UHGV virus genome: UHGV-0121358
Strand: one strand, 5' to 3'
Length of the DNA: 54,213 nt
DNA from: a virus
Positions 4,601 to 37,070 of this stretch are shown piece after piece; position 1 is the first letter of the stretch; each line of letters begins with the position of its first letter. A program made the position numbers and the translations under genes. The notes beneath the pieces were generated by a model that worked only from the letters and a program-made list of their open reading frames with translations, ran no database searches and was not told the origin of the DNA.

Positions 4601-6183
4601 TTGCCATCACTATCAAGCAGGCTGATGGTGTCACCAGGGGCGATATATTCAGAATCAACTTTATCGACCGTGATAACCCTGCCATTGTTTGCCACGATGC
4701 GACCGCCTAAACGAGCGCCTGCGCGGTTATTGTCGAGTATCTCGATAATATCACCAGGGGTGAAGTGAATTGCGTCACGGGCCATTTTAAACGTGAATTT
4801 TGACGGCTCGCGTTTTGCTGTTTCTATCAGCCATTTGCCAGCGCGGTACGCTTGCCCGCGTGACGTGCAACCGAAAGCCTCTAGCGTGGTTTCGTTATAA
4901 CCATCGCGGGCGATCAGTTCATCATCTGCCACATATTCTTTTGATTGCTCCCAGCCGTTTTCTGGGTCAGTCCATGATACGATCACGGCGTTGTAACATT
5001 CTGCAAGCGGAAGGCTTGAGCGAGTAAACGCGCCATCAACGACGTTTGCATTTGTGATGGTGGCAATTGGATCTTGTGGCGCATCAATCATCACGGTAAG
5101 GCGTTGCCCGTCCCATAACGCGATGCCACGGAACATACCTGCGATGTTATCCAGTAGGTCGCGGGCGCTCATTTGCTCCGTAATGTAAGCGTTGAGAGTC
5201 ATGCGAGGTTCAAGGCCACCATAGCCATCATCAACCAACTGATCGCAGTATTGAGAAAGCACATACAAAGCGCCATCATCAACATCAATGTAACCAGCAT
5301 GTCTAGCAAGCCCAAAGCGCTCGTTTTTAACCAGATACCGGAAAATCCACGCAGGGTTATTGGTGTACGCTTTTTTGAATCCACCAAGCCATAAACCCGA
5401 ATATGTGCGCGTTTCTGTGTTGTAGTTATCAGGAACATCAACAATCAGGCCGCGAAGGTGATAGGTACGGGTGGGCGTATCAGTATACTGATCATGGTCA
5501 ATTACAGCGCCAGCCACGGCGGTATGAGGATAAGACAGGTTATCATCTATTATTTCGCTGTAACTACTCCACCGCGTATCATTCCGCAATAGATCGCTGT
5601 TGCTGTCTGCTGTTATGCGACGAACGCGAATATCAAACGGCTTTTCATCAGGCGCGTTGATAACGTGAGCTTCCAGGTATTCACCACTCTGTTTACCAGG
5701 CCCGATTGTAATGTATTTAACAGGCGACCACGTCGATGATAATGATGGCTTAACATCAACCATTAACACAACGGATGTATTGTATTGATTGCCCTTATCA
5801 TCTGACTGAACGAGAGCATCAACACCAAGATTCAACCTGACGCGGGTAACGTTTGGATCTGAAACAGTCCTGATTATTGGCGTGTCGTGAGTTACCTTTG
5901 CGTTGACGATAACGGTTGATTCGATGGCATTAAAACCATTAATCGGCGATTGGTCAGCCGTGCCGTTGCGCCAGGCTATACTAATCCCCGGGATTGATGT
6001 ATTCCCGTTTGCGTCAGTAACAGGTGTGTCATTAAGCATCACATCATTTAGTGGCGCCTTCTGGTTTACCGGACCGTATATCGGCCCTTCGCTGAGAATA
6101 TCTAAAACACGATAAAACTGTTTATGATACAGGTTATCGTTTAATAATACTGGTGTCTTGGCTTTGCCGCCGCCGCTACTCAT
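1603..6183 (-). CDS. J: host specificity / central tail fiber protein J (tip attachment), 1526 aa with expanded coiled-coil middle region
   Basis: Track ORF. N-terminus and several blocks (GPIYGPV, DTPIIRT, WSSYSEIID, RTYHLRGLIVDVPDNYNTETRTYSGLW, FGCTSRGQA, HFTPGDIIEILD) match my recollection of lambda gpJ; sits after I/K/L as in lambda. Confidence 0.9.
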   Translation of the reverse strand: MSSGGGKAKTPVLLNDNLYHKQFYRVLDILSEGPIYGPVNQKAPLNDVMLNDTPVTDANGNTSIPGISIAWRNGTADQSPINGFNAIESTVIVNAKVTHDTPIIRTVSDPNVTRVRLNLGVDALVQSDDKGNQYNTSVVLMVDVKPSLSSTWSPVKYITIGPGKQSGEYLEAHVINAPDEKPFDIRVRRITADSNSDLLRNDTRWSSYSEIIDDNLSYPHTAVAGAVIDHDQYTDTPTRTYHLRGLIVDVPDNYNTETRTYSGLWLGGFKKAYTNNPAWIFRYLVKNERFGLARHAGYIDVDDGALYVLSQYCDQLVDDGYGGLEPRMTLNAYITEQMSARDLLDNIAGMFRGIALWDGQRLTVMIDAPQDPIATITNANVVDGAFTRSSLPLAECYNAVIVSWTDPENGWEQSKEYVADDELIARDGYNETTLEAFGCTSRGQAYRAGKWLIETAKREPSKFTFKMARDAIHFTPGDIIEILDNNRAGARLGGRIVANNGRVITVDKVDSEYIAPGDTISLLDSDGKFKKHQITGVSGNKITLASAPAWIRNGTVFAVSTNAAKPVLCRITSVAETENNSVYTVEASQHDPHKQAVVDNGAIFEVNNDTLNHFRVPNIENLKVLNIGSETVQCRATWETLTTTHRLTFEIRVYNSEGAVVKSYETTNYSYDFYGIDAGNYSLGIRGRNDTGMKGAESIVDLVIGAPAAPVGVNWVPGVFQATVYPISRTTLTTDTSYEFYYSGETQITDPASVTTKAQYTGRGHQWTFGGMNTGHTYYVYVRTRNAFGVSDFVEASGKPTENFDEITDYVTKDVMNSEQFKGMVSDIKDLGDRTDLIESATNDLKTATDNLITETGSIKADTDTLKKETEDLYKKVKENADDIGQHESRIDSLEVSSEKVDSELAQARASLQNASIALINNSLAQTNTRVTLTAQYKKGRTETKAEIDRIDNVIAEEKKATAESLETITAEMNTMDSNLKGQISNVQRAVADEASARAEAINGVNAAISNLDKKTDASVSRLDKAISDETQARSDAITDVKADLTTLENSTNASVKRLDQAIADESSARAQAISGISAELGSVESDVDKNSDKIEQAKASLQNASIALINNSIAQSKMGTVIEAKYRKGQIKTKAEIARIDTAIADETQARAEAIASLEANINENISAKIMDVSTALANHEASSAEKFVQISASFEDVNSSITEWSQAMATADEALSSKIDQLTVTVNGNKTAIETTSKALTDFKGNVDASYSIKLATDSNGRTYATGMSLGLTGDGTNFQSQCIFLVDRFVLMTAANGTYQSPFYVTNGAMYVREAFIKDASIGTAKIADAAITTAKIAQRIQSTNYASGSAGWMIDKNGNAEFNNVTVRGKVYASSGKFTGTVEAKTFVGDVANMGVGPDRVLGYNGSYNATITYNDSTDSPLRKSVMLMATISLASGEYRSTYNVTFSCGGKSKTIQYYVPYGGCTLTVQCAFSGLTASSITGQIYCPQTSASEGYSYCTALYSPTMLVSRGTGSFSASTTA

Positions 6184-34142: not shown

Positions 34143-34302
34143 AATGCTCTCTCCTTTTTCAGGTGATTTTTACGCATTTCAGCGTTACCGGATTTTTAAA
34201 GAGCATTTTGTTTGTTTGAAGTATACAAAACGGATACATGCGAACAAACAATAAAGCGCCATTATGTGATCCGCATCACACAATGACGCCATTTTGTAAA
34301 CA

Positions 34303-35067
34303 TCAATCCGGTAAAACGCGGTTAAGAGTAGTCCGCGTGATTGCCCGGTCATTAGCCAGGAATACAGCACGGGCGAATCCTCGCGGCGTGAGTGAGCGGA
34401 TCATCTTAGTGCGCTTCGACTTCCCGCCTAACTTCGCGTGCTGCTTACTATCTTCCCACTCATCAGGCATTGGTACAGGCCGAAATAGCGGCTGTTTAAA
34501 TCCGTTGCCGCACCAGATACAAGTTTTCTTCGTGTAGGCGTCGCGGTCGGCGATGTATTCCGGGAAAGCTGGATGCTTATCATCTTCCGGCAGGTAGCCA
34601 CCGTAAGCGCACGGATTAAAAATGAAATCCGGCTTACGCCATAACGTTGACAGTGCTCCAACCGGGTTTTCCACCATCCACGGGACGTGGTACATGTCAG
34701 CAAGCGTTTCTACCAGTTTTGCGTTGTATGCCGCCTTCTGCTGGAAGTAAGGATCTTTTTCACGCTTGCTTGAAAACCAACGAGCGCCGGACACCGCAAG
34801 ATCGTCGCACGGAGGAAAGCCCAGGATAATGTCAGGATCTGGATAAACAGACAATTCAGGGGAGAACATTACCAGGAAATGGCTGTCAATCCATACGTTG
34901 ACATATTCAATGTTAGGATGAATGATCTTGACGCCTTCATAATCGCCATGATTAGCGCCGTCATAATTGAAACAATAACACTTATAGCCAGCGTCGGCCC
35001 AATCTTTAACGGCGTACCCGCTGCCGTCGTACAGCGACCACACCACCCAATTTCTAAGCCCACTCAT
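34303..35067 (-). CDS. C5 cytosine DNA methyltransferase-like protein (noncanonical PCD motif)
   Basis: Track ORF; motif-IV-like GFPPCDDLAVSG and motif-VI-like VENPVG; 254 aa is short for a C5-MTase. Confidence 0.5.
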   Translation of the reverse strand: MSGLRNWVVWSLYDGSGYAVKDWADAGYKCYCFNYDGANHGDYEGVKIIHPNIEYVNVWIDSHFLVMFSPELSVYPDPDIILGFPPCDDLAVSGARWFSSKREKDPYFQQKAAYNAKLVETLADMYHVPWMVENPVGALSTLWRKPDFIFNPCAYGGYLPEDDKHPAFPEYIADRDAYTKKTCIWCGNGFKQPLFRPVPMPDEWEDSKQHAKLGGKSKRTKMIRSLTPRGFARAVFLANDRAITRTTLNRVLPD

Positions 35068-35639
35068 TTCCTACCCTCGAACGTAAAATAGCGACGAATG
35101 ATGATAGTGATCACCGTTACAGCCGCCATTTTTGAGATGAATTGCATAGCTGATATTTCCGGCATAAATGCCATAAACGATAGCGTGGGAAAAATTAACG
35201 CATCACCAATGGCGGACGCTATATTCGCAGGCCAGCGTTTTGAATCGAAATCGCCAGGTAAAATCCGGTAAACACCGCCAGAAATAAGCGCACCGGAAAC
35301 AACCGCGACGAATGACGCGATCGCCACCATCCCGGCATCGTAGTTTATCAGCACCGTGATTGCGCCAGCGGCGGCGCATGTTGTAGCCGACCATTTCAGG
35401 CCGCCGTCATATAACAGGAAGTCACGGATCATCATATTGACGCACACGGCGGCTACCGTGGTGATCGGAATTACCCACGGGCCGCAGTGGTTAACAATAA
35501 GGTTAATGATCACGAAAACGGCGACATAAATGCAGGCCAATAACCTGTCAATTGTCACCCTTTCCATTTTTATGATACCCCGCCGCGCGTAGTAGTGATT
35601 CGTTATCACACTTACCATCAAGCCTGTTTGCAAGGACAC
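35064..35639 (-). CDS. integral membrane protein, unknown function
   Basis: Track ORF; several hydrophobic segments; start uncertain (M1, M8 or M25). Confidence 0.5.
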   Translation of the reverse strand: MSLQTGLMVSVITNHYYARRGIIKMERVTIDRLLACIYVAVFVIINLIVNHCGPWVIPITTVAAVCVNMMIRDFLLYDGGLKWSATTCAAAGAITVLINYDAGMVAIASFVAVVSGALISGGVYRILPGDFDSKRWPANIASAIGDALIFPTLSFMAFMPEISAMQFISKMAAVTVITIIIRRYFTFEGRK

Positions 35640-35705
35640 TATTTAGCGTTACCTTGCTGCTGGCGATTAAGTCGCCTGGTATTGAGGCATTCTTACAGCC
35701 GCAAT

Positions 35706-36056
35706 TTAACGGTATATCAAAACAGCCCGTTTCTTTCTTTGGGCTTCCTCCCGCTCCGTTAATATTTGCTCCGCTTTTAGCGCGTTATAGCTAATCAAAT
35801 CAATTAGCGTGTCTGTCGGATCTGATTTATTGCTTAAAATGGCCTCTAAACGCGCCTCCTTGAGACAAATTAGCAGATCCCATACATCAAGCGGGGTTAA
35901 ATCTGCTCCCTTCTTAGCGTTGTAAATAGTGGCTATTTTTGGCGCTGATTTTTCCTCTTTTTTGTCGTAGCCGTTTTGTTTACCTCTTTGCTCTATGGTT
36001 TCCGCTGCAAGTCTCAATAAATCTGCTGCCTTAGTCATTATCTGCACCTCTTGCAT
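35706..36056 (-). CDS. hypothetical protein
   Basis: Track ORF; overlaps 3' end of methyltransferase gene. Confidence 0.45.
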   Translation of the reverse strand: MQEVQIMTKAADLLRLAAETIEQRGKQNGYDKKEEKSAPKIATIYNAKKGADLTPLDVWDLLICLKEARLEAILSNKSDPTDTLIDLISYNALKAEQILTEREEAQRKKRAVLIYR

Positions 36057-36570
36057 ATAGCTCTTTACGTGTTATCTGCGTGAAAATACATTCATGTCTG
36101 CACCGTGGATGCCAGATCAAGAACAAGCTCCCCTTATTGTTTCCGCTTGCTGGTTTACCCGTCGCGGCATTAATAAACGCCAGCCGCCCGCGCGTGATTA
36201 ATCGGCATTCATTTGCCGTCTCCACGCCGTTCATAAACCAACTAACAGAAGTGTCGGCTGGCAATAACATTACACAGCCAATATGATTTCGGTGGTGTTC
36301 AAACGCCGCCTTATCAACGAATGGTCCCGGATTAGAATATGGTGGATTCATCCAGACATATTCACCAGGCATCGCCACCGCTCCCCACGGGTAATTAAGC
36401 GTGTTCATTTCTTCGGTTATATATCGCGGAACTAATGCATTTGCCTTGTTTGCCGCCACGTCCGCGACGAATTCGAATTCCCGATCCATTCCTCTAAAAA
36501 CAGGTTTCGGCGTCTGCCATAGGTCTTTTATTTCTTTCGGCGTATGACTGCCGCCGTAATCATTTTTCAT
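36031..36570 (-). CDS. phage N6-adenine DNA methyltransferase (Dam-like)
   Basis: Track ORF; NPPY catalytic motif (VWMNPPYSNPGPF), size ~180 aa typical of small phage Dam-type MTases. Confidence 0.7.
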   Translation of the reverse strand: MKNDYGGSHTPKEIKDLWQTPKPVFRGMDREFEFVADVAANKANALVPRYITEEMNTLNYPWGAVAMPGEYVWMNPPYSNPGPFVDKAAFEHHRNHIGCVMLLPADTSVSWFMNGVETANECRLITRGRLAFINAATGKPASGNNKGSLFLIWHPRCRHECIFTQITRKELYARGADND

Positions 36571-36580
36571 TGCGTCCCCC

Positions 36581-36814
36581 TTAGAAATAATCCTGCTCCG
36601 TCCCCCAGCGGTTATTCAGATACCCCACCAACCACACAAAACGCTCAATGCTGATTAGCGGGGCGACCTTGCGATAATGCTTGTCGAGTATCAGCCGCGT
36701 GGCTTTATCGCTGTAGCCGTTCTTCTCTACCTCCGCTTTGCAGGCCGAAAGCGCGGCGCGGGCGGCAGTCTTTACGGCGTTAAATTGCGGCTCTGACATA
36801 TTGAATAAGGCCAT
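36581..36814 (-). CDS. hypothetical protein
   Basis: Track ORF 36581..36973 truncated to ATG at 36814 (MALFNMSEPQF...). Confidence 0.4.
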   Translation of the reverse strand: MALFNMSEPQFNAVKTAARAALSACKAEVEKNGYSDKATRLILDKHYRKVAPLISIERFVWLVGYLNNRWGTEQDYF

Positions 36815-36818
36815 AGGA

Positions 36819-37070
36819 TCACCATGTGTCAGTCCAATCCGGCGCGGCAGTCCAGCAAAAACCAATGAATGCGCTAACAGCCAATAAAGCGCGGGCTGCA
36901 AAAAGAATATTCCCAATGTCGTTAAATTCAGGAAGCGACCACGTAATAAACATAGCCCCCAGCATAATAACACCGATAACAGTCAGGGCCGCCAGGAAAA
37001 CAAAAAGCGTAGCCAAAAGCCACGCCCCCAACCAGTTAAAAAAGCTCTTAAGCATTTTAAACGTCCTCAA
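36819..37070 (-). CDS. hypothetical membrane protein
   Basis: Track ORF; three hydrophobic segments. Confidence 0.4.
   Translation of the reverse strand: MRTFKMLKSFFNWLGAWLLATLFVFLAALTVIGVIMLGAMFITWSLPEFNDIGNILFAARALLAVSAFIGFCWTAAPDWTDTW

Follow-up and report, generated by a model that had tools for sequence, protein, structure and literature searches.

Is a short phage protein that carries Pro-Cys-Asp (PCD) in place of the usual Pro-Cys-Gln (PCQ) still a DNA cytosine methyltransferase, and what would it do beside an adenine methyltransferase? We addressed this question for the virus genome UHGV-0121358, a stretch of 54,213 nucleotides (nt) that is referred to below as the window and appears from its sequence to be a temperate coliphage like mEp021 (mEpimmI group), present as a prophage in E. 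coli. Its region 34303-36570 is filled by four co-directional minus-strand genes that encode, in this order, a Dam-type adenine methyltransferase, a DUF6378 protein, a membrane protein and a 254-amino-acid (aa) protein with motifs of C5-cytosine methyltransferases. A sequence-only reading of the region had suggested that the PCD protein might have altered chemistry or be inactive. Our analysis suggests instead that it is most likely an active, miniature DNA cytosine-5 methyltransferase that depends on S-adenosylmethionine (SAM). What was observed directly is the order of the genes, the membership in a family (by sequence and predicted fold) and the conservation of catalytic residues.

The 254-aa protein and its compact family

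The gene of the 254-aa protein (WP_001530101.1) lies at 34303-35067 (-), separated from the Dam gene by 964 bp. A short protein with motifs resembling motifs IV and VI of C5-methyltransferases, about 1 kb from Dam, is thus present on the minus strand as the sequence-only reading had described. A search of 5.8 billion proteins yielded 2367 homologues at E≤0.001. Clustered at 50% identity, the family comprises 2076 clusters, of which 211 reach E≤1e-30. Given these homologues and the profile scores of Dam reported below, neither gene is a chance open reading frame (ORF). Members of this compact family are typically 210-260 aa long (about 230 aa) and were matched in 1516 of 50,697 phage records, mostly of Escherichia, Klebsiella and Salmonella phages from many genera. 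With identical settings a canonical M.HhaI-type query matched 1665 phage records, so that compact and canonical proteins are about equally common there.

The profile phrog_757, named "DNA methyltransferase", matched the 254-aa protein at E 1.2e-87. Assignment to a non-methyltransferase family, an outcome that the earlier reading had named as a refutation, did not arise from the profile search. The C5-methyltransferase profile PF00145 was matched at E<1 by 11 of 25 close homologues, and three of these homologues, 57-60% identical to the 254-aa protein (P0069, P0101 and P0012), scored 28.5, 25.4 and 24.7 bits against a gathering threshold of 22. Their match covers positions 4-94 of the 324 profile positions, that is motifs I-IV only, and it is only the N-terminal third of the compact family that scores on PF00145.

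We then turned to the predicted fold. An AlphaFold2 model of the 254-aa protein computed from 25 sequences reached a predicted local distance difference test (pLDDT) value of 88.4 and a predicted template modelling (pTM) value of 0.88, and its predicted fold is a class I methyltransferase fold with the catalytic-domain architecture of C5-methyltransferases. The first 45 Foldseek matches of this model were DNMT3, DNMT1 or DIM2. In hhalign, a 90-sequence family profile aligned with DNMT3A (query sequence checked to be identical to PDB 5YX2_A) over motifs I-IV at E 1.9e-4; with the single sequence of M.HhaI (checked against 10MH_A) the same profile aligned over motif IV only, at E 0.12. Motifs I, IV, VI and IX matched in collinear order when the family profile was aligned locally with a profile of the M.HhaI family made from 80 viral loci; statistically this alignment was weak (P 0.04).

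The DNMT3A and DNMT3B catalytic domains are about 12-17% identical to the phage protein. The latter lacks motif X, which is GRSWSVP in DNMT3, and its C-terminal half is shorter. The likeness may partly reflect the small recognition domains of both, and a specific evolutionary link is not claimed.

Catalytic residues and the Pro-Cys-Asp motif

Conservation was counted in 115 diverse family representatives that are <50% identical to each other, and in a second set, the 90-sequence alignment. Motif IV, GFPPCDDLAVSG (residues 83-94; 34786-34821 (-)), comes after a beta-strand (residues 80-83) in the AlphaFold2 model, as in canonical enzymes. Within its F84-P85-P86-C87, the presumed nucleophile Cys87 (nt 34807-34809) was found in 108 of the 115 members and was invariant in the 90-sequence alignment. 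The PCD to which the sequence-only reading had drawn attention is real, with Asp88 as the 'noncanonical' residue, but it is no special deviation. Position 88 was Thr in 99 of the 115 members and Asp in five, which makes PCT and not PCQ the family consensus, and the position varies among the nearest relatives (Asp in proteins that are 96%, 86% and 65% identical, Thr in one that is 81% identical), with a switch between Thr and Asp already within the range of 81-87% identity. An Asp in place of the Gln of PCQ does not disqualify the 254-aa protein, because the active human enzymes DNMT3A and DNMT3B carry Asn at the position after the catalytic Cys. Position 88 is naturally variable and tolerates change. 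The alignments indicate that PCD is a peculiarity of the lineage which says nothing about chemistry, and its use as a sign of altered chemistry or inactivity had to be abandoned.

Motif VI, VENPVG (residues 132-137; 34657-34674 (-)), contains the presumed general acid Glu133. It ends a modelled beta-strand (residues 130-134) and aligns with FMENV of HhaI and LFENV of DNMT3A. Glu133, Asn134 and Pro135 were present in 113, 107 and 114 of the 115 members, respectively, and the Val of the canonical ENV is replaced by Pro throughout the compact family (E133-N134-P135-V136). Canonical bacterial C5-methyltransferases (PF00145; M.HhaI, M.HaeIII and Dcm) thus have PCQ and ENV, whereas the compact family has PCT or PCD and ENP.

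The motif I region had been called degenerate. This holds to a mild degree only, because the Gly-rich D-G-S-G loop is kept. The motif-I-like cofactor loop SLYDGSG (residues 11-17; 35017-35037 (-)) aligns with LSLFDGIATG of DNMT3A and DNMT3B, and also with the PF00145 profile from position 4 onward. The enterobacterial clade conserves G15, S16 and G17, and motif I of the wider family reads D-x-[ST]-G.

Two conserved blocks follow in the C-terminal part. The first, DAYTKKTCIWCGNGF in the motif VIII region (residues 176-190; 34498-34542 (-)), contains the near-invariant residues D176, Y178, K180, T182 and W185 and aligns loosely, with low confidence, with HRARYFWGNLPG of DNMT3A (HRARYFW region). 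The second, IRSLTPRGFARAVF (residues 223-236; 34360-34401 (-)), is the last conserved element and aligns with TRKLHPRECARVM of HhaI; its R-S-L-T-P-R-G-F-A-R-A-V-F resembles motif IX (R-x-L-T-P-R-E-x-A-R). The final helix of the model spans residues 229-239. Besides the catalytic Cys and the Glu-Asn-Pro, about 20 further positions are near-invariant in the family. That Cys and Glu hardly vary in more than 100 clusters with <50% identity speaks against an enzyme that has lost its activity.

Several observations weigh against an active cytosine methyltransferase. The 254-aa protein had no match in Pfam and NCBIfam at E<0.1, and RefSeq calls it a 'hypothetical protein'. Profiles made from 25 and from 90 homologues matched solved C5-methyltransferases weakly (E 0.28-0.8) and over motifs I-IV only, with short-chain dehydrogenases mixed into the weak PDB matches. 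The acidic position of motif II, an Asp in 104 of the 115 members, is Asn34 in the enterobacterial clade including the 254-aa protein, and no residue could clearly be equated with the arginines of canonical motif VIII. The distance between the motif-VIII-like Trp and the motif-IX-like Arg has a median of 36 residues in the compact family, compared with about 103 in M.HhaI. A motif X of the form G-N-[SA]-V after the last block was found in none of 201 family members, the median tail being 11 aa long. In addition, no published experimental characterisation of any family member was found in the literature searched, motif strings included. Judging from the alignments, the atypical features (short recognition region, no recognisable motif X, ENP) belong to the compact family as a whole. 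Neither Pfam nor NCBIfam contains a model made for this family, which sits at the edge of the annotation rules; a phmmer search of the 254-aa protein against PDB sequences gave no match either.

A relic that has lost its methyltransferase activity, or a protein that, like DNMT3L, binds DNA or regulates and has no role in modification, could share the 'hypothetical' label and the missing Pfam match, and the Asn in motif II, the missing motif X and the Asp after the Cys would be in keeping with it. We nevertheless regard such a protein as very unlikely. The Cys, the Glu-Asn-Pro and the further near-invariant positions persist below 50% identity and form a conserved active-site signature, the family is spread over phage records of many genera, and the Gly-rich cofactor loop is kept in the clade.

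Naming in the databases is uneven. RefSeq labels the exact protein (locus L085, 1501-2265, E. coli M15) as hypothetical, and an allele that is 96% identical and has the same PCDD motif (locus L086, 1497-2261, Ecol_244) as 'DNA cytosine methyltransferase'. The orthologue in mEp021, gp33 (AXN54152.1), has the GenBank name 'putative DNA cytosine methyltransferase'; this name and that of PHROG 757 were given by similarity alone. The host distribution of the family is odd in one respect. Among the 1516 matching records, 39 are Campylobacter-labelled, and members in two of these (MG065677.1 and MG065648.1) are 53-59% identical to the query, which is the level of the copies in rV5-like and other coliphages. 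These entries may reflect mislabelled or contaminant genomes.

Proposed role and the adenine methyltransferase partner

The sequence-only reading had also named a Dam-type N6-adenine methyltransferase with an NPPY motif, and this gene is present. The 179-aa protein (36031-36570 (-)) scored 177.5 bits with PF05869 (cutoff 28.1; E 2.4e-52; 166 of 169 profile positions) and 142.7 bits with the equivalog TIGR01712 (cutoff 97.05), and it also falls into phrog_111. Its NPPY (residues 75-78; nt 36337-36348) lies inside WMNPPYS, and RefSeq lists the protein as 'phage N-6-adenine-methyltransferase'. Its homologues were found in 1966 phage records; Stx-converting, T1-like and Klebsiella phages are among them, with identities of about 36-44% (about 42% for Stx-phage and 40% for T1-like phage Dam proteins). 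With both family thresholds cleared well and the NPPY shared, the similarity is solid enough to regard the protein as an ordinary phage Dam of the T1/Stx-phage type. Studied members of this family methylate GATC, and by analogy we assume the same specificity for the Dam of the window.

We infer activity, substrate, specificity, timing and biological role of the gene pair as follows. The block would be read in lytic growth only, through antitermination by the N-like Gp17, by analogy with mEp021. In the compact enzyme, Cys87 of motif IV would attack C6 of a flipped-out cytosine and Glu133 of motif VI would protonate N3; the methyl group would then go to C5 and the enzyme would be released. Its recognition site is probably very short or relaxed, because about 36 residues replace a target-recognition domain of about 100 residues. 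Dam and the compact enzyme would mark new phage DNA before packaging, as a 'Trojan horse' against restriction. On balance, we think it probable that the phage produces the two enzymes in its lytic phase and that they act on its DNA while this is being replicated, Dam methylating GATC and the compact enzyme C5 of cytosines in a short or relaxed site. Broad anti-restriction methylation by the pair, as put forward in the sequence-only reading, is plausible. In the BASEL phage study, such genes showed no simple link to restriction resistance in Drexlerviridae.

The family keeps the Cys and the Glu, yet it has hardly any target-recognition domain and no motif X. A broader possibility is therefore that the compact family does not consist of conventional writers, and that its members are near-sequence-independent or dinucleotide cytosine modifiers, partner-dependent modules, or enzymes with another substrate or cofactor. 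We consider this doubtful for the family as a whole. M.EcoGII is a non-specific adenine enzyme of a prophage, and a near-sequence-independent or dinucleotide-level cytosine modifier would be its counterpart. On this reading, the motif details that resemble DNMT3 would also make the compact family a possible viral relation of the catalytic core of DNMT3, for which the literature has not settled on a prokaryotic origin.

More narrowly, the 254-aa protein could be competent without writing 5-methylcytosine in DNA, for instance with RNA, tRNA or single-stranded DNA as its substrate, or with another group such as carboxymethyl transferred from carboxy-SAM. Dnmt2 acts on tRNA, and CmoA of E. coli makes carboxy-SAM. 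We rate this possibility as quite unlikely. The phage DNA cytosine C5-carboxymethyltransferase CmoX (PDB 8YF3) is a full-length enzyme characterised in the literature by an SPPC motif, an Arg at the motif X Asn position (Arg350, which binds carboxy-SAM) and a neighbouring cmoA. The 254-aa protein differs from it in having FPPC rather than SPPC and no identifiable motif X, and no cmoA-like gene was seen among the examined neighbours of its gene. We also considered Arg224 as a mimic of CmoX Arg350; by sequence, the surrounding block looks more like motif IX than motif X.

The meaning of the pairing was approached by a co-occurrence survey of 80 viral contigs with a family member, covering up to 6 kb of flank per side as far as the contig extended. 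Matches to Dam and to the membrane protein accompanied the C5-like gene and NinG in each of the 14 mEp021-like loci, and 13 of them had DUF6378. Among the remaining 66 loci, a T1-type Dam and DUF6378 were found nearby in three only (L118-L120), and the membrane protein in none. The other 63 had no T1-type Dam within 6 kb in single-sequence phmmer searches; because such searches would miss other Dam classes, this co-occurrence is a lower bound. Where the pair did occur, in L118-L120 and in all 14 mEp021-like loci, Dam lay within about 1-2 kb of the C5-like gene.

Other forms of coupling were seen as well. The family member P0254 is a single polypeptide that joins a compact C5-like module with an adenine DNA methyltransferase of the D12 class (PF02086), and in the P1-like phage D6 (D6_64/D6_63) the family gene shares an overlap with the beginning of a gene annotated as a P1 Dmt-like adenine methylase. 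The window differs from both in that its Dam is of the T1 type and two unrelated genes lie between. From these comparisons, the pairing of C5-like and adenine methyltransferases appears recurrent and not obligatory, and the pairing with a T1-type Dam specific to the mEp021-like lineage and not general.

These data bear on the idea that the compact protein is a catalytic subunit which borrows DNA recognition from Dam, its own dimer or a host protein and methylates cytosines beside the partner's site. DNMT3A and DNMT3B function as oligomers. As the closest structural match, they would offer a precedent, and the recurrent coupling in P0254, D6, L118-L120 and the 14 mEp021-like loci would fit, as would the recognition region of about 36 residues and the missing motif X. 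Against it stand the 63 loci without a T1-type Dam and one mEp021-like locus, L090, which keeps the C5-like gene though most of Dam is lost. We regard partner dependence as unlikely.

Locus L090 (IMGVR_UViG_3300045988_049781) is the one mEp021-like locus without DUF6378. Its deletion removed DUF6378 and most of the Dam and membrane-protein genes and left the C5-like gene intact; at 5648-6001, one short ORF (also protein P0278) matches the N-terminus of Dam and the C-terminus of the membrane protein. The two methyltransferases are thus found uncoupled in a naturally occurring variant. In L118-L120, which are unrelated siphovirus-sized contigs of about 44-45 kb, the compact C5-like gene, the T1-type Dam and DUF6378 lie within about 3 kb, and because of this recurrence Dam and DUF6378 may travel together.

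A clue to specificity was sought in k-mer counts of the window (GATC, CCWGG and others), and none was found. GATC (243 observed, 260 expected) and CCWGG (119 observed, 129 expected) are not avoided. Under a Markov model, GGCC is strongly under-represented in the whole window (121 observed, 199 expected) and AGCT moderately so (143 observed, 184 expected).

The window itself matters little in this context: its genes are orthologues of already annotated mEp021 genes, and the PCD is not special. The interest lies in how common this miniature DNMT3-like family is while lacking any biochemical characterisation that we could find. Knowledge of its specificity would help to read phage methylomes and to explain why phages are sensitive to restriction or to nucleases that depend on methylation, such as McrBC. 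The family is also a possible source of a very small cytosine-modifying tool enzyme.

Position of the block in the phage genome

The gene order Dam, DUF6378, membrane protein, methyltransferase, terminator, NinF, NinG, RusA and Q is the same in mEp021. The block is 85-91% identical to those of phages mEp021, mEp010/013/044/515/554 and MagusPhagus and 100% identical to that of a prophage of E. coli M15, and a related block is carried by 35 of 5426 complete E. coli genomes. Unlike mEp021, the window thus has the M15 prophage allele, with a different 3' end of DUF6378.

A terminator-like hairpin was found by scanning at 34255-34290 (-), 13 nt past the methyltransferase stop codon; it has 16 pairs and a T-rich tail and corresponds in position to TERM_4 of mEp021. 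On the 3' side of the hairpin lie a small NinF-like ORF, NinG, RusA and the antiterminator Q, and upstream of Dam an ipe homologue, small ORFs, an Abc2-like gene, an Erf recombinase and the repressor. By analogy, the block most likely sits in the early-right operon, between recombination and accessory genes and the NinG-RusA-Q region, and would be closed by the hairpin terminator. In a paper on the mEp021 phage group, a third antitermination site, nutR2, and the terminator t4 are placed just downstream of the methyltransferase gene. Because nutR2 and t4 are placed there next to the orthologous gene, the four-gene block most likely belongs to the early-right transcript that is antiterminated by the N-like Gp17.

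The sequence-only reading had placed a membrane protein and a small gene between the two methyltransferases, and both could be identified. The small gene (35706-36056 (-)) overlaps the end of the Dam ORF and encodes a 116-aa DUF6378 protein (PF19905, 32.2 bits, cutoff 27.1); RefSeq places its start at 36038. At 35640-35800, the last third of this gene and the following spacer are unrelated to their counterparts in mEp021 and MagusPhagus. The two phages are also unlike one another across this stretch, and the ORF measures 116 aa in the window compared with 165-170 aa in them. The replaced 3' third indicates a mosaic joint inside the gene.

The other intervening gene encodes a six-helix membrane protein of 167 aa (35064-35567 (-)). 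The ORF extends to a GTG at 35639 (35064-35639); homologues and RefSeq use the ATG at 35567, which gives the 167 aa. Its stop overlaps the ATG of the 254-aa gene by 4 nt. We also asked whether the block could be a cassette for hypermodification with 7-deazaguanine or carboxymethyl groups, in which the membrane protein would transport a precursor. This was rejected because the examined neighbours included no genes of the DpdA, Que or cmoA type.

Directly upstream of Dam, at 36581-36814 (-), lies the gene of a 77-aa protein with 96% identity to Ipe ('inducer of pleiotropic effects') of mEp021. A longer ipe ORF of 130 aa begins at a GTG at 36973, which is probably a false start.

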